Origin: Candidatus Levyibacteriota bacterium
Lineage (GTDB): Bacteria > Patescibacteriota > Microgenomatia > Levybacterales > UBA12049
DNA: 47,931 nt
NCBI GenBank assembly: GCA_009695045.1
Contig: SIBS01000004.1
Span: 1-47,931, forward strand
Direction: 5' to 3'
Position 1 is the stretch's first letter, and each line of letters starts with the position of its first letter. The notes under the pieces were generated by a model. That model worked only from the letters and a program-made list of their open reading frames with translations, did no database searches and had not been told where the DNA came from. Positions 31,227 to 47,931 of the stretch are shown in pieces. Both the position numbers and the translations under genes were made by a program.

Positions 31227-32093
31227 TCAATATATAGCTTCTATACTACTTCCATTTGTTATCAAATCTATATCGCCTAAGGTATCTGTTCTTAGTACTA
31301 AGATATGCTTCTTTGTTAATAAGTTAAGTATCTCAGATGATGGATGCCCGTATGAGTTTTTTCCCACAGATATGATTGCAATCCGTGGATTAAGTATGGC
31401 AATAAGACGCTCATCAAGGCCAAATCGCGATCCATGATGTGGAACCTGTAATACTGAGACCGTATCATGATACTTACTTAATGCATCATTTAATGGATTA
31501 GCCTGACTATCGCCAGTAATCATAAATTTTATACTTCCATATGAAATACGAAATACAAGCGAACCAAACTCCCTACTCTCCCCAATTTTACCATTCGGAC
31601 TTGTCTTATTAAGTAAATCTCTTGATGGACTTATTATCTCTATTCCTACACCATCAGAAGTTGTAAATTTATCCCCTGCTGTTACATAGCGAGGCTTTAA
31701 ATTCATTCTAGTAATAACTTCTTTAAAGAAAATGAATGAGGGAATTGGATTATCCAATTGCTCTGTGCTAAATGAAGACACATTAAATTGCTGCAAAACA
31801 TCAATAAGACCAATAAAATGATCTTCATGTGGATGAGAAAGGAAAACTTCTGAAATATTCCTCTCCCAAAAGGGTAAGTGTCTATGTAAACAGTCTATAA
31901 TTTTCTTATCTGGTCCGCCATCAATAATAAAATTAATGCCACTTGGAGTTCTCAGCAATACTCCATCTCCTTGACCAACGTCACAAAATACAACATGAAG
32001 CTTACCATCAAAAAAAATATATCTTTGATAAATTATCATTCCAAAAAGAACAAAAAGAATACAAAAACTACCTATCAATATTTTTTTTAGCAT
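31227..32093 (-). CDS. ComEC-type metallo-beta-lactamase-fold protein (separately encoded)
   Basis: DVGQGD, IDGG, SHPHEDH, TGD, VPHHGS, SVGKNSYGHP, RTD..G. Confidence 0.92.
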   Translation of the reverse strand: MLKKILIGSFCILFVLFGMIIYQRYIFFDGKLHVVFCDVGQGDGVLLRTPSGINFIIDGGPDKKIIDCLHRHLPFWERNISEVFLSHPHEDHFIGLIDVLQQFNVSSFSTEQLDNPIPSFIFFKEVITRMNLKPRYVTAGDKFTTSDGVGIEIISPSRDLLNKTSPNGKIGESREFGSLVFRISYGSIKFMITGDSQANPLNDALSKYHDTVSVLQVPHHGSRFGLDERLIAILNPRIAIISVGKNSYGHPSSEILNLLTKKHILVLRTDTLGDIDLITNGSSIEAIY

Positions 32094-33348
32094 ATATCTG
32101 CTTCAGTCCCATAACGATACTTACTAATAAGCAGTAATATCCAATTATAATTGGTACTGAAGCCTTCTCAATAACGATACCTATTGGAATATCGCCAAAA
32201 AATTGGGTAATAAATATAAAGTAAGAAAGGAATGGAATTGATAAAAAAAGAATAAATTTTCCAATAATTGGTATAAAAAGTCCAATTACCCCAACAAAAC
32301 TACCAATTACCATTAAAGGCGGAATAACCCACAAAACTAATGGATTAACTACTAACGAAATTAATGAATATGTACCAAAATTTACAAGCAGAATTGGTAT
32401 CGTAGCCAATTGTGCAGATATAGTGGTTAGAATATCAGCTCCAATAGGACTATTTATCAGAAACTTTTCTATTCGCAAGGGTAGAGCTTTTGGTAAAAAT
32501 AATATGCCCAAAGTTGCAGCAAAAGAAAGTTGAAATCCTATATCGAAAAGCAAATATGGCCAAAATAAAAGCATCATCCATCCCGTTAATAATACTATAT
32601 ACCAGCTAAGAACCTGTCTTCCCATTATTTGTGCTGAAAAAACAAGCCCACCCATTATTGACGCACGCAAAATTGAGGCTTCTAAGCCAGAAAAAACTGC
32701 ATAAAAAGCAATCACAAATAAAGTAAGGATCAATGCATATTGCCGTTTGAAAAAAACAATAAAAAGATTACTTACAAACGCTGCAACAAGCGTGACGTTC
32801 ATTCCCGAAGCGGCAACAACATGTAATACTCCGGATATACGAAGTTTATCCATAAACTCATTCGACATATCCTCTTTTATACCAAAAACAATTCCCAATA
32901 GTAGGCTTGCATGTGTCTTTGGGAGCGTATTTCTATATAATGATATTGTCTTTTGGCGGACTATATAAGTAGCTGCTAATATATTGTTTTGATCTTTTTT
33001 CTGAGCCTCAATTTGGGGCAAAAACATTGATAATGCAACCCTTTTTCTATCTAGCACTTGGTCATTTTGATTGCTAATATCAGGCGTGATAGTTTTATGA
33101 ACTCTACCTGAAATATAAATAGTTTGTCCATAATGAAATAATGGAAAATGATTTGCTCGTATAAAAACACGCTCACCATTTGCTAGTATCACTGATAATT
33201 CTTGGAATCTTCCTTTTTCACGCGGCTGAGTAAGTAACGTTGTACTAAAATTAAGCATTTGACCATCAATAATGCTATGTTGTTTATAGTAGAAAATATA
33301 GAATCTAAAAAGTAAAACAACAATTATAAAAAAAATAAAAAATTTCAT
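32068..33348 (-). CDS. comEC: ComEC/Rec2 competence membrane channel domain
   Basis: SGVLHVVAASGMNV, SILRASIM, DIGFQLSFAATLGI; multiple TMs. ATG 33348 preferred. Confidence 0.92.
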   Translation of the reverse strand: MKFFIFFIIVVLLFRFYIFYYKQHSIIDGQMLNFSTTLLTQPREKGRFQELSVILANGERVFIRANHFPLFHYGQTIYISGRVHKTITPDISNQNDQVLDRKRVALSMFLPQIEAQKKDQNNILAATYIVRQKTISLYRNTLPKTHASLLLGIVFGIKEDMSNEFMDKLRISGVLHVVAASGMNVTLVAAFVSNLFIVFFKRQYALILTLFVIAFYAVFSGLEASILRASIMGGLVFSAQIMGRQVLSWYIVLLTGWMMLLFWPYLLFDIGFQLSFAATLGILFLPKALPLRIEKFLINSPIGADILTTISAQLATIPILLVNFGTYSLISLVVNPLVLWVIPPLMVIGSFVGVIGLFIPIIGKFILFLSIPFLSYFIFITQFFGDIPIGIVIEKASVPIIIGYYCLLVSIVMGLKQIYAKKNIDR

Positions 33349-33419
33349 TAACTGTCGCCACAGAGAGATAATTACAATCAAAAATCCCCTATTTCATAAA
33401 TCCTGCCTAATTGATGCGC

Positions 33420-34058
33420 TTAGTACACTGATATCTTATCTTTTATCTGCTCAAATACCTTACTGGACAATATCTTCTTCTTTAATAATTCATCTATTGC
33501 TGAAAATGGCCTACCATCTATAATTTTTTGTGCAGAAACTATGCCTATACCAGAAAGCGTATCCAAATCGCTTAAGCTTGCAGAATTAATATTTATCAAT
33601 CCATTTAAAGTAAAATTATCGGAGTTTCCTAAAACCGCCTTGCTATCTTGTATAGGCCTAGATACTTCTCCGATAGATGGTATGTATATCTTTTGTCCAT
33701 CAGTAATTTTCTGTGCTAAATTAATGTTTTTTGCAACCCATTTCCTATCTGCATTCCCAGATAATCCACCAGCAGATATAAGTGCATCTTGCATTCTAGC
33801 TAAATTAGTAAGTGAATACATTCCCGGATTTACCACTGATCCACTCACGTCAATAACTATTTTTTCAGCAACTTCTAAAATATTTCTTTCATCACTAGAC
33901 TCAAAAACTACTTTATTTTCAGAATTTTTTGAAAATATTAAAGTAATCAGACCATATCCAATCAATATCAAACCTATGCAACCAAGAGCTAATGGAACAA
34001 TATGAAGTCTTACCAACGGTGAATGTTCTTGCCAAAAATCTTGCAGGATTTCTTTCAT
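33420..34058 (-). CDS. comEA: Competence DNA-binding protein ComEA
   Basis: TM, SLBB domain (IDVSGSVVNPG...INLAQKITDGQKIYIP), HhH (ININSAS..DLDTLSGIG..SAQKII). Confidence 0.94.
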   Translation of the reverse strand: MKEILQDFWQEHSPLVRLHIVPLALGCIGLILIGYGLITLIFSKNSENKVVFESSDERNILEVAEKIVIDVSGSVVNPGMYSLTNLARMQDALISAGGLSGNADRKWVAKNINLAQKITDGQKIYIPSIGEVSRPIQDSKAVLGNSDNFTLNGLININSASLSDLDTLSGIGIVSAQKIIDGRPFSAIDELLKKKILSSKVFEQIKDKISVY

Positions 34059-37071: not shown

Positions 37072-37704
37072 ATGAAATTACTTTGGCAATCAATTTGTCT
37101 TATTGGATCATTTATATTTGTCTTTATATGGCAAAATACCATATTATCTATATATACAATCCAGATATTTGGTTCACTGATTACGATTTTCATACTTGTA
37201 TCTTTTAAAAAAAAGGGGCTCAATCCATTCAATAACATCGATAACGATGAACCTTTTAGTATTGCTATACTATGTATCATAATGCTACTTCTTGTTTTTT
37301 CAACAGGTGGTATTAGTTCCCCATTATTCTTCCTTTTATATTTTTTAATTTTTAGTATTGCATTTGTCTTTGAGCCACCAGCTGTATTTATCTTTGCAAT
37401 TGGTATTTTTCTCATATTTCTACCCGATACGCTCAAGAATGATGTCTATGGAAATGCTATGCGCACTGGATCAATACTCCTAGTCTCGCCTCTTGGTTTT
37501 TTCTTTGGAAAAGAATACAGTAATCAAGAAGAAAAAAATAATATAATCGATAATATAGCTACCAAATCAACTAATGCATCAAATATAATTATAAATGACG
37601 CCACGGAAATCATTAATAATGAACCATCATTAAAAAAGGACAGTATTGAAAAAATAAATGAGATCCTAGACGAAGCAGAATCACTAAATCAATCAAATAA
37701 ATAA
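37072..37704 (+). CDS. Membrane protein with C-terminal cytoplasmic helical tail
   Basis: About 5-6 TM helices including STGGISSPLFFLLYF; polar helical C-terminus. Confidence 0.75.
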   Translation: MKLLWQSICLIGSFIFVFIWQNTILSIYTIQIFGSLITIFILVSFKKKGLNPFNNIDNDEPFSIAILCIIMLLLVFSTGGISSPLFFLLYFLIFSIAFVFEPPAVFIFAIGIFLIFLPDTLKNDVYGNAMRTGSILLVSPLGFFFGKEYSNQEEKNNIIDNIATKSTNASNIIINDATEIINNEPSLKKDSIEKINEILDEAESLNQSNK

Positions 37705-37729
37705 TTCTAAATTAAAATAATTCTGATAA

Positions 37730-38464
37730 ATGAAATTAATCATTGCTCTTCTTAGTCTTATTTTTATAATTTTAAGCTCAAAACAAGCACTTGCCCTAAC
37801 AATGTCCAATAGTAATTGGACTATACAATTTGGCAATTTTAATTCTGGAGCAGGAAAGACAACAAATTTAAATTATAAAATGGGAGTTACTATTGGTCAA
37901 ACTGCAGCAGGAATGTTTTCGGGAACAAATTATAAAACTCGATCTGGATTTCAATATATCAATGTTACTAGTGCATCATCATTTTCTATTTCAATATCCG
38001 AATTACTTATTGATTTTGGATCTCTTTCACCAGGTAATCCATCCAAGAGGACTAATACCATTAGGATATCCAATGGGCCAGTATCAGGATATACTGTAAC
38101 AGCTTCAGAAAGTAGCCAGTTAAGAGAATTAAGGACAGGTGATGTTATCGCAGACACTACCTGTGATGATGGGTCATGCACTGAAGCTATATCTTCTAGC
38201 TGGGATAGTCCCCTAACATATGGTTTTGGATATAGATGTGACAATATAACTGGTACCGATTGCACTAGTGATTTTACAACAGATAATTATTATAAACAAT
38301 TTGCAAATTCCTCTATACAAGAAAGCCCACAAAAAATAATGTCTGGCATAGGCGACTCTCTGGAAAAAGAAGTGAAAATTACTTATAAGGTGAATATTTC
38401 AAATTCCCAAGTCGCTGGTCAATATAGTAATTTTATCTCATTTATAGCCACTCCAGTCTTTTAG
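37730..38464 (+). CDS. Secreted WxL-like/pilin-like surface protein (small subunit)
   Basis: Signal peptide (..QALA), IDFG, SGYTVTA, GFGY, four Cys, C-terminal AGQYSNFISFIATPVF. Confidence 0.65.
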   Translation: MKLIIALLSLIFIILSSKQALALTMSNSNWTIQFGNFNSGAGKTTNLNYKMGVTIGQTAAGMFSGTNYKTRSGFQYINVTSASSFSISISELLIDFGSLSPGNPSKRTNTIRISNGPVSGYTVTASESSQLRELRTGDVIADTTCDDGSCTEAISSSWDSPLTYGFGYRCDNITGTDCTSDFTTDNYYKQFANSSIQESPQKIMSGIGDSLEKEVKITYKVNISNSQVAGQYSNFISFIATPVF

Positions 38465-38957
38465 ATTTTAGCTTGGTAAAATAATTATCTTTTTCAGCAT
38501 TAGCTCTTTTTAACTTTTCACAGATTTTATCCTAAAAAACATTGATTATAAATCAAAAATAAAAATTTATGCCTATAAAATTAGATGTTATCATAATTAG
38601 CTTTGATTATTGAACAATTTCTACTCTCAAATATGTATTCTTGGAGATAATATTTTACCATCGCCTCAATAAATTTTCACAGATTTTAGCCCTATTAAAT
38701 TCAAGTTTTTTATCTAGCATTTGGGATGAATGTCTGCTAATTATTATGTGGGATAAATTATAATTATTCAAAAAAATCATATTTACAGTAAAATCTATAA
38801 ATTAATATACTTATCTAAATCGCATATAGATAATTAATACTTAAATGTAATAAAAAACATTATTGCTCAATAAGGCCTATTCTTGCTTTATCCATATTGA
38901 TAGAATCAAGAAAAATGATACGATATATTCATGGTCAACATTTAATTTGATAAAGTA

Positions 38958-39989
38958 ATGAGATTTTTAAAATTTAAGTTTATAATTGGAGTATCAATAG
39001 GCATTTATATAATTGGCATGCTTGCAAGCAATGCTAGTGCTGATGGAGTTAATCTTGGTGTCTATCCTCCAATTATTCAAATAATAGCAACTCCACCAGC
39101 AAAAATAGAAAGCGAGGTAACTATACAAAACCTAGAAAATCAGTCAATTAATGTATCTATTGAACTAAGACCATTTACCGCATCTAAGAAAGAGAATGGA
39201 GAAGTAAGATATCTTAATAAAAATGAGCCGTTTGGAGCTGATCCATTATTGCTACAAAGAATTGAGATAGTTGAAAATGGAAAAATTATCAAAGAAACCG
39301 TTCTTGGTCCCAAACAGAAAAAAACATTAAAAATAAATATCACTATTCCCAAAGAATCACCGCTATCAGACTACTATTTTTCTATTCTATTTATATCAAA
39401 ATCATATCAATATGATCAAATATCGCAATCAGAAAAAGAGCCAAAACAAAGTGGATCATTTATGCAGGTAGGGATTTCTACAAATATATTATTATCAGTA
39501 GGTCCAAAAGGTATTGCTAAAGGTACAATTGAAGAGTTCTCCTCACCGCTCTTTATGGAAAAGGGACCAGTTCCATTTACAGTAAGGATTAACAATAAAA
39601 GCGAACACTCAGTGGCACCAAAAGGAAATATTTTAATTAAAAATTTTTTTGGACAACTAATTGGCAACATTGAACTAGCGCAGGTAAATATACTCGCTGG
39701 AACTATTCGCTCTATACCAGATATAGAACATATCATAAATTTGAAAACTCAAAAAGAAATGCTATCAATGGATCATCCAAAAGCTTTTTGGACCGAATAT
39801 TTCCTACTAGGACCATACACAGCTACACTAACAACCTCACTAACCGACAATGGGCCAATTTATAGTCGTACTATCTATTTTTTTGGTTTCCCTATTCAAG
39901 GAGTAATTGGAATACTTATGTCAGTAATTATTGTCTTCTGGCTTAAGCAGAGAATAAATTATCATAAAAAAAATAAACCAAATACATAA
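38958..39989 (+). CDS. DUF916/WxL-interacting-protein-like secreted protein with C-terminal TM anchor
   Basis: Signal peptide (ASA), GVYPPIIQI, two Ig-like beta domains (..IPKESPLSDYYFSILF; VRINN..H..P.G.I), C-terminal TM plus basic tail. Confidence 0.65.
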   Translation: MRFLKFKFIIGVSIGIYIIGMLASNASADGVNLGVYPPIIQIIATPPAKIESEVTIQNLENQSINVSIELRPFTASKKENGEVRYLNKNEPFGADPLLLQRIEIVENGKIIKETVLGPKQKKTLKINITIPKESPLSDYYFSILFISKSYQYDQISQSEKEPKQSGSFMQVGISTNILLSVGPKGIAKGTIEEFSSPLFMEKGPVPFTVRINNKSEHSVAPKGNILIKNFFGQLIGNIELAQVNILAGTIRSIPDIEHIINLKTQKEMLSMDHPKAFWTEYFLLGPYTATLTTSLTDNGPIYSRTIYFFGFPIQGVIGILMSVIIVFWLKQRINYHKKNKPNT

Positions 39990-40104
39990 AATGTCTAATT
40001 ATGATTAATTAATTTTGCTAAATTATTAATAATCATGCTCATAACTATTGATATTTACTAAAATTATATTGATAATTACAAAACTAACTTATGTTTATAT
40101 ATTT

Positions 40105-41541
40105 ATGAAAATATTAAATAAATTATTAATTATATTTCTGGTATTGATTTATCAAGAATTATTAACAACAAAAGCACAGGCTTCGCCCCTTTTAACTATT
40201 TCAGATACAACAACTACCTCTCGCCCATCTTCAGCTTCCCCGCTCAATTCTGATGCTAGTATTGGAGACAATGTGCTCAAAATCTATGATAATAATTCTC
40301 GTTTTCTATCATCTGATAATGTAAAGATAATCCGAACATCAAATGCAGCAAATATAGCAACTGGATTTATGATTGCTTCTCAAGCCTCAGAATTAACATC
40401 TGTATATCTGACCAATGAAGGAGTGTCTGATTTTGTACAAGCCGGAACGGATGTATTAATCAATCCAGTTACCGCAATGCACAAGATAGTCTTTAAGACG
40501 GTAAATCCTATTCCTGCTGGAGGTAAAATAATTATTACTTTTCCAGGAATTAGCAACAACACCGCATCTCCATCTGCTTCATCATTTGCTTTTAATGGAC
40601 TCAATTCCGATACGGGAGAAAAAATAAAGGCACACAATGCCATCTGTAGTATTACTGTTGAATCACCTAGAATAACTTGTGTCACTTCTAATATTATTGT
40701 TGCTGGCACTACTATAACTCTTTTAATTGGATGCGCTAACAACACTGAGACGTCCTGCATTACACAATCACCAACAATTATTAATCCTACCAAAAAAAAT
40801 ATAGCAGGAGAGTCAAAAAGTTGGCTAATTTCAATAACAACTCAAGACTCTAGTACGATTCCCATTGTTATAGATTCTGGAAAAGCAGTGGTTAGCAATA
40901 TTGAATCAGTAACTATCCGTGCCAACGTAGATCCAACAATTACATTCACGATAACAGGTATTAATAATGGTTCTTCAATTAATTATCTAAATCCTAATTG
41001 TGGAATAAAGGAAACTACGAATACAGGCATCAATGCTACATTTTCTAGTATTGATATTGGTGTTGTTGATGAAATGCCTGAAATAAATCAAAAACTAAAT
41101 AATATTACCGCTCAACGCATCAACATTACAACAAATATATCAAATGGTTATTCACTCACGGCCACATCTAGTAGTCATTTAATAAATACTGTAACCGATA
41201 CATGGTTCAATGACTGGATTACTCCAAGAGCATTTAATCCAAATGTGGAAGGTTTTGGACTACATCCATGTGGTACTGATGCTCCAATTAATTTTAATGA
41301 AGGCCTATCACATTCAGTGGAGTGCTTTACAAAAACATCTGGATCTTCATCAAGAGAATGCCTGTACTCATGGCCCACTAGTACCAAGTCAATAACTATT
41401 GCATCACGAACTATTGGCCCAGTACAGGGAGAGAATGGATCCGGCATCACAAGCATATCCTATGCAGCGGGAACAGACAAATCTATACTAGCTGGTACAT
41501 ATAAAACTTCAATAACATATCTTGCGATTCCAATATTTTAA
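40105..41541 (+). CDS. Secreted WxL-like/pilin-like surface protein (large subunit)
   Basis: Signal peptide (AQA), Thr/Ser-rich beta domains, C-terminal domain homologous to 37730 (IDIG, NGYSLTA, GFG, GTD, AGTYKTSITYLAIPIF). ATG 40105 preferred. Confidence 0.7.
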   Translation: MKILNKLLIIFLVLIYQELLTTKAQASPLLTISDTTTTSRPSSASPLNSDASIGDNVLKIYDNNSRFLSSDNVKIIRTSNAANIATGFMIASQASELTSVYLTNEGVSDFVQAGTDVLINPVTAMHKIVFKTVNPIPAGGKIIITFPGISNNTASPSASSFAFNGLNSDTGEKIKAHNAICSITVESPRITCVTSNIIVAGTTITLLIGCANNTETSCITQSPTIINPTKKNIAGESKSWLISITTQDSSTIPIVIDSGKAVVSNIESVTIRANVDPTITFTITGINNGSSINYLNPNCGIKETTNTGINATFSSIDIGVVDEMPEINQKLNNITAQRINITTNISNGYSLTATSSSHLINTVTDTWFNDWITPRAFNPNVEGFGLHPCGTDAPINFNEGLSHSVECFTKTSGSSSRECLYSWPTSTKSITIASRTIGPVQGENGSGITSISYAAGTDKSILAGTYKTSITYLAIPIF

Positions 41542-41555
41542 CTTAAAATAAAATT

Positions 41556-42518
41556 ATGAATATTAAAATGAAATATCATTGGAGATTAAAAATTCTTATA
41601 CTAATCATCATATTTTCTACTTGCAATATCTATAGAGGAAGAACATATGCTCAAGAAATACAGCAACGGTCATTTACCATCAGTCCTCCTATTGTAGAAA
41701 AAGAACTTAATCCAGGAGACATATCTGAAGGAATTATTAAAATCGAAAATCAAAATAATGATAATCTTATTCTATCAATATCAACTCAAGATTATATAGT
41801 AGAAGACACGAATGGAACCCCAGCTCTCGTATCTTCAGATAAAATAATAAGTAAATATTCCGCAAAATCATGGATTGGAACAGATCAATCAACTGTCACG
41901 ATAGAGCCTCACAAAAAAATCGAAATATCATACTATATTAAAATTCCCAAAGATTCACGACCGGGAGGCCATTACGCTGCAATTATCTTCAGCCCAATTA
42001 ATCGAATTAACAACGAAGGAACAGGCGCTACTGTAAACACTTTGCTTGCATCTCTATTTTATCTTAACATAAAAGGAAATATAATTGAAAACGCATTGCT
42101 AAACAAAATTAAAATAAATAGCTTTCAAGAATATGGTCCAATAAATATAGCCACACAAATTAGAAATCTAGGCGATCTACATATTCGACCAGATGCAAAG
42201 TTCACGCTCTATGATACCTTTGGCAAAGTAATAGAAACACAGCAATTAAAAAAATCGAATATATTTCCAGGATCATCTCTTGACTTTAAAAATACCATGG
42301 GCAAAAAATGGATGATTGGACAATATAGAGTGGAATTTTTAGGAGGGTATGGAAAATACAATAATAAACCTCTCTCCTCGTCAATAACATTCATAATATT
42401 TCCATGGAAAATATCAATAATTATAATTCTTATCACTACCCTATTTATTCTTGGTACTATATATTTCGTAAGAGAAAGAGGCAGTAAGAGAGGTAGAAAT
42501 CCATTAATTATTCTTTAA
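41556..42518 (+). CDS. DUF916/WxL-interacting-protein-like secreted protein with C-terminal TM anchor
   Basis: Signal peptide, TISPPIVE..LNPGD, SAKSWI, IPKDSRPGGHYAAI, IRNLGDLH, C-terminal FPWK plus TM and basic tail; paralogous to 38958. Confidence 0.75.
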   Translation: MNIKMKYHWRLKILILIIIFSTCNIYRGRTYAQEIQQRSFTISPPIVEKELNPGDISEGIIKIENQNNDNLILSISTQDYIVEDTNGTPALVSSDKIISKYSAKSWIGTDQSTVTIEPHKKIEISYYIKIPKDSRPGGHYAAIIFSPINRINNEGTGATVNTLLASLFYLNIKGNIIENALLNKIKINSFQEYGPINIATQIRNLGDLHIRPDAKFTLYDTFGKVIETQQLKKSNIFPGSSLDFKNTMGKKWMIGQYRVEFLGGYGKYNNKPLSSSITFIIFPWKISIIIILITTLFILGTIYFVRERGSKRGRNPLIIL

Positions 42519-42624
42519 ATAAGTTATATTTTATCCTGAGCAAGATATAGCTATAAAAGTTATTAAATTATTACTCAATGCGCAATTTAAAAACATTATT
42601 AAAATAAAACTATCATAATTATAT

Positions 42625-43536
42625 CTAATAACCAATGAACCAACCATGATGCAACTTTTTCTTTTTTAATTTAGTTAGAAATTTCTTCCAAAATTTATTT
42701 TTAGTAATAATTGAGAATATCCTTGGATAAAGCCTAAATAGTAACATTAAGATTAAAATAAATAATGGGAATATCATCCACAATATATCAAAATTAATAT
42801 TTGATATATATTTCCATAATCTAGAAAAGAAATCATTTAACCAATTATTAAACTGATCAGTAACCGAAAGAACAATAATCATCGCCCCTTTTTTAGATTT
42901 AAAGGAATCCTTTCCTTTAAAGGTCGCCTCAGCAAAAATATAATTTTCACCCAATCCTAATCCAAATATTTCTACAGTATAGTAGCCTGATTTATCAGAG
43001 ATAGTTTTAATAATTTTACCATTGCTAATAATTTTCACTTCTGCTTCTGGCATAGTGTATCCAATTACCGTAGCTGAAGATCCTAGTGCTATTTTCGTCC
43101 TCACCAGTCCTATCGTTGGAGGCAAAAATAAATCTTTTTTTGTAATCACACTTTCAGCTGGTGGAAATGAAAAACACACTTCAGATATGCCAATTTTTTT
43201 AAAATCTACAGCAATTAAACAGAATTCAGATAGTCTTTTTTTTATAATTTCATTAGAGAAAGTAAAATAACCATCTTTGTCAGCAACGGTAGAATTTAAA
43301 AACTGATCTTCATTAATCCTTAAAACTATGCTTGCATAAGGACTAGCAGATCCAGATATATTTAAGAAATAATCACCAACGAATGCGCTTACGTTCACGG
43401 AATTATTAGATTGAATCGCAAATGCGAAATTAGTATGTATAGATATCAATATAGTACTTATTGTAATAAAAACTATCAATAGAAAATATTTTATTATTAA
43501 TTTTTTAAATATTATTTTTTTGAATTTAATCCACAT
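42625..43536 (-). CDS. Secreted/membrane protein with two Ig-like repeats and C-terminal TM
   Basis: Signal-like N-terminus; two repeats (ISGSASPYASI..ADKDGYFTF; VIGYTMPEAEV..SDKSGYYTV); TM; C-terminal LHHGWFIGY. Confidence 0.7.
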   Translation of the reverse strand: MWIKFKKIIFKKLIIKYFLLIVFITISTILISIHTNFAFAIQSNNSVNVSAFVGDYFLNISGSASPYASIVLRINEDQFLNSTVADKDGYFTFSNEIIKKRLSEFCLIAVDFKKIGISEVCFSFPPAESVITKKDLFLPPTIGLVRTKIALGSSATVIGYTMPEAEVKIISNGKIIKTISDKSGYYTVEIFGLGLGENYIFAEATFKGKDSFKSKKGAMIIVLSVTDQFNNWLNDFFSRLWKYISNINFDILWMIFPLFILILMLLFRLYPRIFSIITKNKFWKKFLTKLKKKKLHHGWFIGY

Positions 43537-44063
43537 ATATTATATTGCAAACTGCCCCATTAAGTTAACACATGCTCTACTATTATCCATAAAATATTAC
43601 ATTCGAAATAATTAATATTTTATATTTTTACTATATATTTATGATTCATATAATTATTTTTAATTCACCTATATATATTGTAGACGAATTTAGAGTAGAA
43701 AAACAAATGATAACAAATATAAAATATAATGCCGTAAACACAATCTAAATAGCAAATAATAAAAAATAGCATTTATTATATTTGGATTGCCAAATTATAA
43801 TTTTTAAAAGTTGAGCTACAATGATATGGTTATTTTTAATAATTACTTCTGTTTTAATATTTTCTTACATTCAGATTACTAGGACTATAGGACTTTATAC
43901 CTTGCTTAAAATACGAATAAAAATAGAAAAACTTATCATTTTTCAATTTAGATTATATTATTAATGATGTAATTTGAGATATTTAATATATAGATTGATG
44001 ATAAAAAAATACGAAATCTTTAAAATAATAAGGTTTTTATCGTCTTAAATTACCCTCTAATAC

Positions 44064-44096
44064 GTCCAAATCAATATACTAGATATTAATTTGGAC
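44064..44096. repeat. Inverted repeat with 13-bp arms and 7-bp spacer
   Basis: GTCCAAATCAATA-TACTAGA-TATTAATTTGGAC; arms are 12/13 complementary. Confidence 0.8.
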
Positions 44097-44122
44097 AAGC
44101 CTAGTATTTATACTATGGGATA

Positions 44123-44151
44123 TTGACAACGATACTAGTAGTTTCTAAGCT
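44123..44151 (+). promoter_or_regulatory. Sigma70-type promoter facing the giant ORF
   Basis: TTGACA, 17 bp containing the palindrome TACTAGTA, then TAAGCT. Confidence 0.6.
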
Positions 44152-44219
44152 ATAAGTGTATGAAAAATCAAATTATTTCAAGTAATTATTTAGATCATGA
44201 AAATTATTGCCCAGATACA

Positions 44220-44250
44220 AGATTATACAGATTATACAGATTATACAGAT
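44220..44250 (+). repeat. 9-bp tandem repeat (AGATTATAC) x3 plus partial copy
   Basis: agattatac agattatac agattatac agat read directly from the sequence. Confidence 0.9.
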
Positions 44251-44689
44251 ATATTAATTTAATGTTTTATCATCAAATAACTCTTCCCTATGCTTGTGCC
44301 TATTCATTTACATACTATAGACACTTTTCTATGACAGGAGTAAATCAAGAATGAATCCATATAAAATAAAACCATATATTAATTCACGAATATTAAAAAA
44401 AAACTATCAAACCTATCGCCCATTCATGGCCTCTGCTTCGGCCAAGATGTTTTGGGTATCAATTGCAATCACTTTAAGTTTTGTAATAAGTCAAACATTT
44501 TTATTTTTTACAAGATAAAAATATAAATATCTAAAATTACGCTAATAAAAATAACCTGTCCATGGATCACTTAAAGAGTTTATTAATATCAAAAAGTAAT
44601 AATCTGATATATATTATATCTTTTGTCGGGTCGTACACAAAAACATCATTCTTCATTAAGATAAATTCTAATTCTAAAAGGAGGCTACC

Positions 44690-47600
44690 ATGAGTTTACT
44701 GGAAAAGTTTAAAAAATACCTACAGGATCAGACTACGCCTGCATCTAGGGCTACAATAAAAAATTACTTAGCAGATGTTGGTCAATTTATAAAATGGTGC
44801 GAGGATAAATTTGGCTATTTTTCTCCAAAAGACATAAATTATGTAACTATTTCAACATATAAAAAAATTAAAAACGATTCTGGTATTTCATTAAGCTCAA
44901 TTGATAGGCATATTTCTTCGCTTCGTAAATTTCATACTTTTCTAAGTATAAGTAGTCATGATATTGAATCTAATCCATTTGTAGATCCTATTTCTAATTT
45001 TAACAATATTGTTCCTACGGATAAATGGAGTATTAAGAAATTTAAAGATTATCTTTATGCATGTAATTCATCGCCTCTTACTATAAAGAACTATATCGCT
45101 GATGTGCGTCAATTTACTAATTGGATAGAATCACATATGGCAAAAAATGGTCAGGGAATATGGACAGAAAACCTTCTAGAAAAAATTGATAACTCACTTC
45201 TCCAAAAATATAAAGACAACTTAATTAATTCTAATATCTCTGCGCTATCTATAAATCGAAAACTTTCATCTAATCGTAAGTATACTGGATGGGCACAAGA
45301 TAAGGGCCTAATGCATTTTCAATCTGAAATTATAAATATAAAAAAGCCAACATCTCAATATAGTATTCCAAAAAATAATAATGATCTATCTTCTAATGTA
45401 AATATGATAAAGACTAATAATTCTTTGTATTCAAATAATGATAATAGATTAAAAATAAAATATTCAATACTACCTCCAATTCGACTTTTACAAAAAATTT
45501 GGAATGGAATACTTTGGATACTTGATGAAATTTTTACAGGTCATATTATTGATATTATAGAAAATATTGATTATTTGCTTTGGAAAAGTAATGGGAAAAG
45601 AATTTTTGTTAACACAAAAAAGATTAGCAAAAATATTATTAATAATATTTCTTCAAACAAAAAATTAACAATTGCAAATATATCAAAATATGACTATTCA
45701 CATCATGAAATATCTACTACATCTATGCCATTACATTTTAAAATACTTCATCATCTACGAAATACTCGACCAAATTGGTATCATAAGTATCATTCTTACT
45801 CAATCTCCCACTATCTCCATTTTGCAATTCTTGTGATCGTAATGTCTGCATTAGGTTTTGGATTTTATCAAAAATTTATACAAGAAACTGGCACCAAAAG
45901 CATTGCTTTAGCAGGGCCAATATCGCCAAACAGGGTGCTTTCTTTTCAAGGAAGATTAACTGACAGTAATGATATTCCAATCACATCACAAAAAAAACTT
46001 AGATTTAGCATTTACAGCAATGAGACTTCAACCGCTGCTGCAGCCATTGAGCCATTTTTATGGCAGGAGTTACGAATTGCCACTCCTGATGCTGATGGAA
46101 TTTTTAGCGTACTTCTAGGATCTAATCCTACAGGTGGCCCTACTGGACTATGTGGTGATTTTCCAGCAACTACTCCATGTGGAATAAAACAATCAATATT
46201 TGGGGACCATGATTTATTATGGCTAGGCGTAAGCGTTGAAAATGATTCAGAGCTTACTCCTCGTCAACAAATTGCAACAGTTGCATTTGCAACAAATTCA
46301 GAACTTCTTCAAGGTCTACCCCCCACAATAGATACTGCATGGATTAGCAATAATACAAATACAAACGCTATACTTGCATTGAATAGTTCTGGCACTCTTT
46401 CAATCGGTGGAGCAAGCGGATCTAAGACTACATTTCAAGCAAACGGAAAGTATACGCTTACGGGACGGGTTTTATCAATTAACACAACTGCTGGAACAGA
46501 TACGAATATTGAAATTACTCCAGATGGTATTGGAAAGATAGATGTTCAAAAACCATTACAAAATAGCACAAGTAGTAACAATATACTCTCATCCATTGGA
46601 TCCGTGGAAATTGATGATACTTTTTCCGTACTTGCTACATCATCCGGAATACCAGCAGCAACAATAAATCAAAATGGATCAGGAGATATATTTACTGCAT
46701 CATCTTCTGGAAATACAAAATTTACAATTACAAATTCTGGTAATGTTGGAATAGGAAGCGTAATGCCTGGATATAAATTAGATGTTACCGGAGACATCAA
46801 CGTATCAGGTGGATTTAAGGTAAATGGCGTAAGCTTTACTGGTAGCTCTCAATGGACTACTAATTTAAATAATAGTATTTATTTCAATACTGGAAATGTT
46901 GGGATTGGAACTACTGCTCCGATAGGATTACTTCATGTTTCTGGAAGCGTTGGGGGCAATTCAATTGGAATAATAAATAATGAAGGTAGCGTTGGAGATA
47001 TATTTACTGCATCATCTTCCGGAAATACAAAATTTACAATTACAAATTTTGGAAATGTTGGCATTGGAAGTATTACGCCAAATGCAAAACTTCAGATTGT
47101 TGGATCTGATACATCAAATTCTATCTTTGCTGCAAACATTGGTGGGTCAACTGGTACAGGACTCATTGTTACAAATTCAGGAAATGTCGGGATTGGAAGC
47201 GTAACGCCTGGATATAAATTAGATGTTACCGGAGACATCAACGTATCAGGTGGATTTAAGGTAAATGGGTCAAGTTTTGGTAATCAATGGATCACAAGCG
47301 TAAATACTATATCAAACAGTAATTCTGGAAATGTTGGCATTGGAAGTATTACGCCAAATGCAAAACTTCAGATTTTTGGAGATGATGCACTCAATACCAG
47401 CTTTGCTGCTAATATTGGCGGAAATAATGCCCTAGAAACAGGACTCGTTGTTACAAATTTAAACAATGTAGGGATTGGAACAACTGTGCCATTTTTTAAA
47501 TTAGATATTGATGGAGATATTGGTCCAAGCTCAGATAATGCATATAATATTGGGTCATCTTCTCTGCGATGGGGTACTATTTATGCAAATTCTGTAAATA

Positions 47601-47931
47601 TACCTGCTAGCAATGGTTCTTTTGGACCATGGGTTATTAATGGTAATCTATTATCTACTACCAATCCATCATTTGATCTTTTAATTGGAGGTAGTGCCAG
47701 TAACTCTGCTTCATTTCAAATATTTGCAGGGACTGATATTGGTATAAATGCTAGAGCTGGTGATGCTTCTACTTCTGGATCACTTGTATTTAATGGAGCA
47801 GCATCACCTACTATTGATATATTAAATAATCAAAGATTAGATTTTCAAACTTCTAGTGGTGGAGATACTGGTCTTACTGCTAGATTGTCTATTCTTGGGA
47901 ATGGAAATGTTGGGATAGGGACTACTGCTCC
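44690..47931 (+). CDS. Giant surface fibre protein (3' partial): two integrase core-binding/SAM-like domains, TM helix, GNVGIG-repeat extracellular region
   Basis: Not in the ORF track because it has no stop in the window. SD AAGGAGG (44678-84), ATG 44690, frame open for 1080 codons to the window end. SAM-like units FKKYL..SRATIKNYLADVGQF..SSIDRHISSLRKF and FKDYL..SPLTIKNYIADVRQF..SINRKLSSNRKY; TM FAILVIVMSALGFGFY; LSFQGRLTD domain; seven GNVGIG/NNVGIG units. Confidence 0.88.
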   Translation, partial: MSLLEKFKKYLQDQTTPASRATIKNYLADVGQFIKWCEDKFGYFSPKDINYVTISTYKKIKNDSGISLSSIDRHISSLRKFHTFLSISSHDIESNPFVDPISNFNNIVPTDKWSIKKFKDYLYACNSSPLTIKNYIADVRQFTNWIESHMAKNGQGIWTENLLEKIDNSLLQKYKDNLINSNISALSINRKLSSNRKYTGWAQDKGLMHFQSEIINIKKPTSQYSIPKNNNDLSSNVNMIKTNNSLYSNNDNRLKIKYSILPPIRLLQKIWNGILWILDEIFTGHIIDIIENIDYLLWKSNGKRIFVNTKKISKNIINNISSNKKLTIANISKYDYSHHEISTTSMPLHFKILHHLRNTRPNWYHKYHSYSISHYLHFAILVIVMSALGFGFYQKFIQETGTKSIALAGPISPNRVLSFQGRLTDSNDIPITSQKKLRFSIYSNETSTAAAAIEPFLWQELRIATPDADGIFSVLLGSNPTGGPTGLCGDFPATTPCGIKQSIFGDHDLLWLGVSVENDSELTPRQQIATVAFATNSELLQGLPPTIDTAWISNNTNTNAILALNSSGTLSIGGASGSKTTFQANGKYTLTGRVLSINTTAGTDTNIEITPDGIGKIDVQKPLQNSTSSNNILSSIGSVEIDDTFSVLATSSGIPAATINQNGSGDIFTASSSGNTKFTITNSGNVGIGSVMPGYKLDVTGDINVSGGFKVNGVSFTGSSQWTTNLNNSIYFNTGNVGIGTTAPIGLLHVSGSVGGNSIGIINNEGSVGDIFTASSSGNTKFTITNFGNVGIGSITPNAKLQIVGSDTSNSIFAANIGGSTGTGLIVTNSGNVGIGSVTPGYKLDVTGDINVSGGFKVNGSSFGNQWITSVNTISNSNSGNVGIGSITPNAKLQIFGDDALNTSFAANIGGNNALETGLVVTNLNNVGIGTTVPFFKLDIDGDIGPSSDNAYNIGSSSLRWGTIYANSVNIPASNGSFGPWVINGNLLSTTNPSFDLLIGGSASNSASFQIFAGTDIGINARAGDASTSGSLVFNGAASPTIDILNNQRLDFQTSSGGDTGLTARLSILGNGNVGIGTTA
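46682..47374 (+). repeat. Near-identical intragenic DNA modules in the fibre gene
   Basis: 46682-46736 vs 46994-47048 (55 nt, 1 mismatch); 46754-46827 vs 47195-47268 (74 nt, 1 mismatch); 47050-47098 vs 47326-47374 (49 nt, identical). Confidence 0.9.

Follow-up and report, generated by a model that had tools for sequence, protein, structure and literature searches.

Why should a gene that starts like a site-specific recombinase go on to encode a giant surface fibre? The last gene on contig SIBS01000004.1 from a Candidatus Levyibacteriota bacterium (assembly GCA_009695045.1) raises this question. ("The window" below means this whole contig of 47,931 nucleotides (nt), which is the stretch of DNA that we analysed.) The protein begins with two core-binding (CB) domains like those of tyrosine recombinases, has a single hydrophobic segment, and continues as a repetitive fibre, and a first-pass annotation of the window had proposed that it ties DNA to the cell surface. 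Patescibacteria live attached to other microbes and have few classical signalling systems, and to our knowledge little has been established about how they sense or regulate attachment.

We conclude that the reading frame is a real, conserved gene of tiny freshwater bacteria and that it encodes the precursor of a surface fibre, probably trimeric, that is akin to phage tail fibres and to the mosaic adhesive trimer (MAT) fibres of Bdellovibrio. Both the architecture of the protein and a repeated DNA element ahead of the gene are solid and unusual, and from them we infer a function. In our preferred reading, for which the chances seem evenly balanced, the non-catalytic CB pair, which would lie in the cytoplasm, is a membrane-tethered DNA-binding regulator of the one-component kind. 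More tentatively, we suggest that the tandem GTATAAT repeats at the gene's own promoter are a candidate target of the pair.

The fibre precursor gene (44690..47931, plus strand) has at least 1080 codons. Its frame opens with an ATG, which is preceded by a Shine-Dalgarno-like aaaggagg, and runs from 44690 to 47929 (1080 amino acids (aa)), where it is stopped by the contig end and is open on its 3' side. Because the window is an entire contig (C8 of this genome), the C-terminus of the fibre lies outside the assembly. The other 12 contigs of the genome (677 kb in 13 contigs, about 31% G+C, 95.9% completeness) hold neither a continuation of the frame nor a paralogue.

Tandem core-binding domains joined to a fibre

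CB1 spans aa 1-97 (44690..44980, plus strand) and CB2 spans aa 113-207 (45026..45310, plus strand). In Pfam, the SAM-like, Xer-type core-binding families PF13495 (E = 2.4e-8, aa 3-81) and PF13102 (E = 3.4e-5) match CB1, and PF02899 (E = 4.9e-17) matches two stretches, the better of which is aa 115-205 in CB2. Pfam matched no other kind of domain in the protein. CB1 and CB2 share 37% identity (E = 4e-11) and are an internal duplication. With the CB domain of the single Xer protein, the one tyrosine recombinase that the genome encodes, CB1 shares 24% identity. The catalytic domain of tyrosine recombinases (PF00589) was found neither in the fibre protein at E ≤ 1, nor in six full-length homologues, nor in the precomputed Pfam annotation of the 120 homologue matches listed. 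Similarly, the NCBIfam TIGR models for XerC and XerD aligned only at positions 2-106 of about 290-295. Since just the first 100 or so positions of these models are matched, the catalytic domain is absent, and so the leader (the part of the protein that precedes the fibre) cannot recombine DNA. Public records say otherwise: as the first-pass annotation had anticipated, many of the named proteins among 156 matches at E ≤ 0.001 are called "site-specific integrase" or "XerD." Such proteins number well over a hundred, and these names would mislead surveys of mobile elements.

A structural model of the leader from AlphaFold (AF2), built on 30 sequences, contains two four-helix bundles, at CB1 and CB2, with a predicted local confidence (pLDDT) that is mostly above 89. 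The top local matches in Foldseek are CB domains, namely those of XerA, 3nrw, the Tn1549 integrase, and Cre. The match to the CB domain of XerA has a root-mean-square deviation of 1.5-2.5 Å over 85-100 columns with 24-26% identity. With the significant Pfam matches, this agrees with the earlier claim that the N-terminus has the core-binding fold. The invariant residues in our alignment of homologues (A1) are K24, N25, Y26, D29, F33, W36, S70, R73, and F81 in CB1 and K133, Y135, D138, R190, K191, S193, and S194 in CB2, and in the AF2 model they map to helices 2 and 4 in both bundles. In CB domains of the XerC/D clade, conserved core helices enter the major groove of DNA (PMC3537659); by our own mapping, these are helices 2 and 4. 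The CB domains are also basic, with a median net charge of +5 and +4 across 227 proteins. In the window, CB1 has +4.1 and CB2 has +6.3 per 100 aa; the median for the proteome is +0.94, and its 90th percentile is +4.44. These features suggest that the CB pair binds DNA.

On the far side of the hydrophobic segment, the AF2 model shows a β-sandwich domain (aa ~415-530; 45932..46279, plus strand) with the conserved stretches LSFQGRLTD (which begins at aa 417), FSVLLG, WLGVSV, and PRQQI. Its strands lie at aa 417-528, and the pLDDT is 74 overall, above 90 in the core, and at most 98. No specific relative of this fold was found in searches of the PDB (best E = 7e-3) or of BFVD (Big-1, E = 6.8e-4), just generic Ig-like or Big-1 matches. 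Next comes the β-helix fibre itself (46682..47931, plus strand). It contains six GNVGIG motifs (46739-47903), all in the frame of the fibre, and there are none elsewhere in the genome. Amino acids 665-803 match a solved fibre of Bdellovibrio, Bd2133 (8ond, E = 3.3e-10), and aa 723-855 match 8ojn (E = 0.0021). Judging from these alignments, the GNVGIG repeats are homologous to the solved MAT fibres, in keeping with the first-pass annotation, which had tied such repeats to trimeric fibres. From this homology, the fibre is probably trimeric and displayed on the surface.

The first-pass annotation had also expected chaperone-type domains of the S74/G2 kind, and homologues do have them: among the 120 homologue matches listed, PF11962 is present in 43 and PF13884 in 8. 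In four full-length homologues these domains are in mid-protein, with about 440-570 aa behind them. In one homologue (P0006), the S74 match has the sequence SSREMK and is again in mid-protein, with about 480 aa behind it. The motif SDxxxK does not occur within the 1080 aa that are present in the window. Full-length homologues (P0006, P0019, and P0169) share a C-terminal domain with the pattern TPVGTPSAQxPFLxRQ...FNWLIxN, and in one short homologue the leader and hydrophobic segment are joined nearly directly to this domain.

The combination of leader and fibre is widespread. A HMMER search with aa 1-420 identified 863 cluster representatives (of clusters at 50% identity) at E ≤ 0.001, of which 174 reach E ≤ 1e-30, with target lengths of 181-6048 aa. 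For 141 of the 150 best matches, the alignment begins within the first 25 residues of the target, and most of the other nine are short and probably truncated. Within the order, the leader is present in 123 of 151 genomes at E ≤ 1e-8 (in 108 of the 130 that are of high quality) and in 65 of 73 genera; by family, it is found in 81 of 99 genomes of f1, 40 of 49 of f146, and 1 of 2 of f147. In these 123 genomes, there is mostly one such gene per genome, and the leader always starts a frame of about 1350-7115 aa. Homologues are 31-46% identical across the full 420 aa. Thus, as the first-pass annotation had implied, the homologues keep the fusion. CB-fused fibres with collagen repeats, FG-GAP, or LamG are found in records from Roizmanbacteria and other Microgenomates-type groups, and the collagen-type fusions imply that the CB leader has been joined to trimeric fibres of more than one kind. 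(Some proteins that are labelled as Roizmanbacteria, such as P0250, P0261, and P0269, have a CB domain, the same β-sandwich, and collagen triple-helix repeats.)

This conservation bears on whether the frame could be an artefact, such as a chimeric join of an integrase to a fibre, or else a relic of a decaying integrase from a mobile element. The public names do read "site-specific integrase," and the contig ends inside the repeats. From four runs, which belong to four studies of freshwater and lake metagenomes, we compared one contig per run over 43400-46800, and all of these assemblies fragment beyond about 46800, inside the repeats, into pieces of 57-325 nt. No RNA run was among the sequencing runs listed for this DNA. 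Up to that point, however, the four independent assemblies are colinear with the window (43400-46800) with 0-9 differences, and this stretch includes the junction of the CB pair with the fibre part. The recurrence of the fusion across the order, its fixed position next to leuS and a pilus-like operon in 21 of 21 loci (see below), and the lack of any remnant of a catalytic domain in Pfam or NCBIfam searches also argue against an artefact or relic, and we give this explanation almost no weight. Within the fibre repeats, the copy number or order in the window may be inexact, or may vary in the population. At 46909, the contigs from all four runs have a joint with 17 other letters, identical in each; three of the runs continue from there at 47212 and the fourth at 46771.

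Membrane segment and candidate cleavage site

Between the CB pair and the membrane, the leader has three further parts. A disordered linker (aa 208-256; 45311..45457, plus strand) has pLDDT below 50 at aa 215-253 and corresponds to variable, gapped columns of alignment A1. The next part (aa 257-300; 45458..45589, plus strand) has a conserved motif, YSxFPPxRLxQK in the alignment consensus, and a long amphipathic helix (aa 262-300 in the model). The third part is very basic (45590..45808, plus strand), with a net charge of +10 over aa 301-371, and it includes a juxtamembrane motif rich in histidine, tyrosine, and tryptophan (RPNWYHKYHSY, aa 360-370). In 161 unique sequences, which were chosen by the presence of [RK]PxW[YF], the R, the P, the W, and the tyrosines at positions 5 and 8 of this motif are 100% conserved, the H at position 9 is 96% conserved, and the Y at position 11 is 81% conserved. 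A search of the ESM Atlas with aa 208-400 gave no usable match.

The single hydrophobic segment (aa 374-397; 45809..45880, plus strand) is either a signal anchor or the hydrophobic (h) region of a giant signal peptide. It is the one stretch of the protein above a mean Kyte-Doolittle hydrophobicity of 1.5 in 19-residue windows (windows starting at aa 370-379 and spanning aa 370-397), and the AF2 model also shows a membrane helix after the helix at 262-300. The transmembrane helix that was placed at 45821-45868 in the first-pass annotation falls within it, and the order of parts that was described there (a tandem CB pair, no catalytic domain, one hydrophobic segment, and then the fibre) is the one that we find. 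Among homologues, the median number of lysines and arginines in the 15 aa before the segment is 3, versus 1 after it, and the count is higher on the N-terminal side in 162 of 217 proteins. Because of this positive-inside bias, the lack of an N-terminal signal, and the net charge of +10 before the segment, we favour a topology with the leader in the cytoplasm and the fibre outside.

Does the fibre stay attached to its leader? A candidate site for signal peptidase I lies just after the segment, at A406-L-A408/G409 (45905..45916, plus strand). In the 161 sequences, the columns just ahead of PPRILSFQGRL are V/A/T (80%), L/F, A/G/S (95%), and A/S/T, so that there is a small-x-small pattern with V/A/T at -3 and A/G/S at -1. 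The window protein has both an h-region and suitable residues at -3 and -1, and the genome encodes one signal peptidase I as well as M50-type homologues of site-2 protease.

Relatives that lack the CB pair are informative about this site. In a sample of 401 genomes from the phylum, the leader query had matches in 6 genomes (E ≤ 1e-10), while a query with the β-sandwich (aa 321-560) had matches in 50. We read the N-termini at 29 of the β-sandwich loci: two CB domains are present at 7, a single one at 2, a weak CB match at 1, the juxtamembrane motif alone at 1, and a plain N-terminal signal peptide at 18. (Of these 18 loci, 17 are from other classes of the phylum and one, L060, is of unstated group.) In 18 of 18 plain signal peptides, an AxA-type site could be seen by eye at 5-10 residues before [ILV]x[FY]QG[RK]L. 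As these CB-less relatives carry a signal peptide where the fibre protein has its hydrophobic segment, the segment corresponds by position to the h-region of a signal peptide, and the CB pair corresponds to an extension of the n-region. By this comparison of sequences, the CB pair is a lineage-specific extension of the fibre leader.

Given the conserved small-x-small pattern and the AxA sites of the CB-less homologues, the fibre may be cut from the CB leader; we consider cleavage and its absence about equally probable, with a slight leaning towards cleavage. If the precursor is cut, then each exported fibre would leave behind a CB stub in the membrane that could be released by a site-2 protease. 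Without a cut, the tether of the first-pass annotation would apply, with an uncleaved signal anchor and a single polypeptide that extends from the DNA-bound CB domains to the external fibre and either anchors the nucleoid or fibre base or signals contact with the host directly. There are points in favour of such a tether: the frame is continuous both in the window and in the 123 genomes of the order; a c-region of about 11-13 aa may put the small-x-small site beyond the reach of signal peptidase; and the conserved juxtamembrane motif, together with conserved histidines inside the hydrophobic segment, suggests more than a disposable signal peptide. Against it, the -3 and -1 residues are kept small across the CB-bearing family, exactly where all 18 CB-less homologues have their AxA sites; a signal peptidase I is present in the genome; and the MAT fibres of Bdellovibrio begin with a cleavable signal peptide that is followed by a β-rich domain (PMC10769870). 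A permanent link from chromosome to adhesin, as it was stated, is not upheld by these comparisons, and we view the tether as unlikely.

The plain signal peptides also bear on a second alternative, in which the CB bundles do not contact DNA but are a platform for protein binding or assembly that would hold the nascent precursor, dock it to Sec/YidC or a polar site, or oligomerise the leader. This could explain why all 420 aa of the leader are kept together, even where the fold is unknown (in the helix of aa 262-300 and at the juxtamembrane motif), and why this motif is present even without CB domains (at loci L054 and L071). Also, with frames of up to 7115 aa, export may need help. However, the same fibre is exported by a plain signal peptide at 18 of the 29 loci, with frames of more than 3000 aa at some of them, so a helper domain is not needed for export. 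Furthermore, the invariant residues are on helices which, in the parent family, make contact with DNA, and the basicity of CB2 is above the 90th percentile of the proteome, with CB1 just below. We therefore think that a platform without a role in DNA binding is improbable.

Upstream repeat and neighbouring operon

If the CB pair is a regulator, what might it bind? Three tandem 9-bp repeats of GTATAATCT lie 444-470 nt upstream of the ATG (44220..44246, minus strand), inverted relative to the gene. At all 20 loci that we read from relatives, two or three tandem 9-bp repeats are found upstream of the ATG on the strand of the gene, with the consensus GTATAATCC-GTATAATCT followed by TGARGCTAA (in relaxed form in 20 of 20). 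Across the 151 genomes of the order, the exact pattern GTATAATNNGTATAAT has 100 matches in 87 genomes, as compared to 7 matches for a reversed control. Of the 100 matches, 92 (in 83 genomes) are 12-760 nt upstream of the ATG of the fibre gene (median 62 nt) and on the same strand; two others are the window's own, and the remaining six are elsewhere or on other contigs. Among the loci that were read, versions with one mismatch were also found in six genomes that lack an exact match. In the window's 677-kb genome, this is the only tandem with 9-nt spacing. The repeat is likewise nearly unique within each of the genomes that have it. Across the 1153-bp intergenic region of the window, no other stretch has matches at most of the relatives' loci; a second, short stretch has matches at three.

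The repeat also lies upstream of CB-fibre genes in two further families, and with at most one mismatch it is present at 5 of the 10 CB-bearing loci from the phylum sample, with ambiguous low-complexity matches at a sixth (L059). No repeat was seen ahead of three genes with two CB domains (families f9 and f10), of one gene with a single CB domain, or of the CB-less gene with just the juxtamembrane motif. At the 17 CB-less loci from other classes it was found at none, while L060 has weak one-mismatch matches at -214 and +7. Because the genomes are related to each other, we treat the co-occurrence of the repeat with the CB pair as a lead and not as a statistic.

Our proposal combines these observations. 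The leader, of about 408 aa, consists of the CB pair, the linker, the amphipathic helix, the basic juxtamembrane stretch, the hydrophobic segment, and a signal-peptidase-type site; the CB leader would face the cytoplasm while the fibre is exported; and the CB pair would couple the synthesis, export, or engagement of the fibre to transcription. In its most specific form, the proposal is that the protein is an autoregulator: the CB pair would bind the repeats at its own promoter, either while held at the membrane or once freed by signal peptidase and site-2 protease when the fibre is exported or pulled. We regard this full scheme as doubtful. If it is true, then the status of the fibre would reach DNA with no kinase or second messenger in between, and the DNA-binding domain of a recombinase would have taken on the role of a signal peptide's cytoplasmic end.

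Several points weigh against the regulator, and against the repeat as its target. First, DNA binding by the CB pair is a prediction. A Foldseek search with the whole N-terminal model gave no match at E ≤ 0.001 (all E-values were above 0.1), the best match in a sequence search of the PDB with aa 1-237 was weak (3nrw, E = 0.049), and a basic charge is expected of any cytoplasmic domain close to the membrane. Second, 56 of the 217 homologues have another fairly hydrophobic stretch in the leader, so the predicted topology is not proven, and the c-region (about 11-13 aa) and n-region (373 aa) are both atypical of a Sec signal peptide; the long c-region makes the predicted cleavage uncertain either way. 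Third, in the window the repeat is inverted and about 450 nt away, and yet the gene is intact. Fourth, the repeat is missing at the CB-fibre loci of f9 and f10 and at one of the f7 pair, and where the repeat and the CB pair do occur together, this may reflect shared ancestry. Finally, as the repeat contains perfect -10-like hexamers at a promoter-like distance from the gene, it may simply be the promoter.

The inverted arrangement is identical in all four assemblies, and of the 84 genomes in which an exact match adjoins the gene, just the window's has it. We considered an invertible promoter switch like that of fim and rejected it: the inverted repeats that flank the element are AT-rich and chance-like (the best exact pair is 12 nt), and the contigs from the four runs (contigs drop rare variants, so a minority orientation may have been missed) contain no joint that changes strand. 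A search of Rfam with 43400-44800 had no match at E ≤ 1, and a scan of the intergenic region for the sigma-70 consensus found 8 sites versus 12.4 expected and so gave no information. Within this region, between the inverted repeat and the ATG, there is also a 55-codon open reading frame (ORF) with a hydrophobic tail (44351-44518) and, inside it, a terminator-like hairpin (44427-44444); nothing similar to either was found in the relatives' loci. Two other upstream motifs were seen: the octamer TTTTCACA occurs within 600 nt upstream of the fibre gene at 18 of 21 loci, and several of the relatives' loci (L028-L047) have a TTTCAC-type motif about 20-35 nt before the ATG, at the expected position of the ribosome-binding site, where the window has the classical aaaggagg.

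Farther upstream, the gene order is fixed. We clustered the ORFs in the 10 kb upstream of the fibre gene from 20 genomes (of two families) and the window, using blastp (E ≤ 1e-8 and 50% coverage). In order, these 21 loci have leuS on the minus strand (21 of 21); a 210-aa ORF (37072-37704, plus strand; 19 of 21); a family of pilin-like ORFs (21 of 21), represented in the window by proteins of 244 aa (37730-38464, plus strand) and 497 aa (40048-41541, plus strand); a family of chaperone-like ORFs (21 of 21), represented by proteins of 343 aa (38958-39989, plus strand) and 320 aa (41556-42518, plus strand); a 303-aa protein with matches to Ig-like domains and an end that we read as a transmembrane segment (42625-43536, minus strand; 13 of 21); and the fibre gene (21 of 21). 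The genes between leuS and the fibre gene (37072..43536) appear to form a Pam-pilus-like operon, an assignment that is weak by score and strong by synteny. The 244-aa protein matches the NCBIfam models CPR_pilus_PamT (E = 5e-13, 49 bits versus a cut-off of 240) and Pam_pilin_C (E = 8e-6, 26 bits versus a cut-off of 55), the 343-aa protein matches WxLIP_PGBD from Pfam (E = 3e-8), and the operon also has a weak match to Big_6 from Pfam.

Also beside leuS, the window encodes ComEA (SLBB and HHH_3 domains), ComEC (Competence domain), and an ORF with a metallo-beta-lactamase fold (31227-34058, minus strand). ORF clusters that match these three in size and position are found beside leuS at 11, 10, and 8 of the 21 loci, respectively. 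We considered ComEA and ComEC as a DNA-uptake partner of the fibre protein and set this aside: they are about 10 kb away beside leuS, and we read the arrangement as a housekeeping gene order.

Comparison with known systems

Our search of a literature library found no description of CB domains that are fused to a fibre. We compared the fibre protein to known systems that share some of its parts. With the tyrosine recombinases XerC and XerD, it shares the N-terminal CB domain, which is a four-helix bundle like that of XerA. The recombinases also have a catalytic domain with the residues R-K-H-R-H/W-Y. In contrast, the fibre protein lacks this domain and has a tandem duplicate of its CB domain, with a membrane segment and a probably exported fibre after the pair. 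As the defining catalytic domain was looked for and is absent, the fibre protein is not a tyrosine recombinase. Its outer part would act as an adhesin of the MAT or tail-fibre type, and its inner part perhaps in the manner of ToxR/CadC or ALOG proteins.

The regulators ToxR and CadC have a cytoplasmic DNA-binding domain at the N-terminus, one membrane segment, and an extracytoplasmic part, and the layout that we propose for the fibre protein is similar. The DNA-binding fold is different, being a winged helix in ToxR and CadC and a CB bundle here, and so is the part outside the membrane, which is a small sensor domain in those proteins and a giant fibre, possibly cut off by signal peptidase, in this one.

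There is also a precedent for the re-use of CB domains in regulators. The ALOG transcription factors of plants are stand-alone DNA-binding domains of the N-terminal XerC/D type that have no catalytic domain, as described in Iyer and Aravind (2012, PMC3537659). Unlike the fibre protein, the ALOG proteins as described there are eukaryotic, single-domain, and soluble, with a zinc-ribbon insert and without a membrane or fibre part.

A parallel in gene order comes from the recently described Pam pilus. According to the preprint text of Troman et al. (2026, PMC13278184), the pam operon encodes pilins, membrane-anchored chaperones, a tip pilin, and a membrane-anchored terminator, and what is called a "tail fibre-like protein" consistently co-localises with it. 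The fibre gene is adjacent to pilin-like and membrane-anchored chaperone-like genes at 21 of 21 of our loci. The preprint text gives no domain description for its tail fibre-like protein and uses the word "integrase" 0 times; that protein may be a member of the CB-fibre family. Beside a Pam-pilus-like operon, a nearly order-wide gene combines a fibre of the host-recognition type, a putative DNA-binding pair derived from a recombinase, and a promoter repeat that is unique in the genome, which hints at a direct link from surface attachment to gene control. This link could be tested with one fragment of the protein, one DNA element of 27-35 bp, and one candidate cleavage site.

A further resemblance is to the MAT fibres of Bdellovibrio and to phage tail fibres and tailspikes. 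MAT fibres are surface-displayed trimeric β-helices that have been implicated in prey recognition, and they include forms with and without S74, ending either in an S74 chaperone (SDxxxK) or in another kind of tip domain; in the account that we consulted, all of them have a β-rich domain of about 130 aa right after the signal peptide (Caulton et al. 2024, PMC10769870). The β-helix repeats of the fibre protein are homologous to fibres of the Bd2133 and Bd3182 types. Its β-sandwich, at about 115 aa, likewise comes directly behind the putative export signal, which is a likeness of placement, and some of the CB-fibre homologues carry S74/G2-type domains, as the S74 forms of MAT and tail fibres do. 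A difference is at the other end: whereas a plain signal peptide opens the MAT fibres, the fibre protein has an extension of 373 aa, predicted to be cytoplasmic, ahead of its hydrophobic segment.

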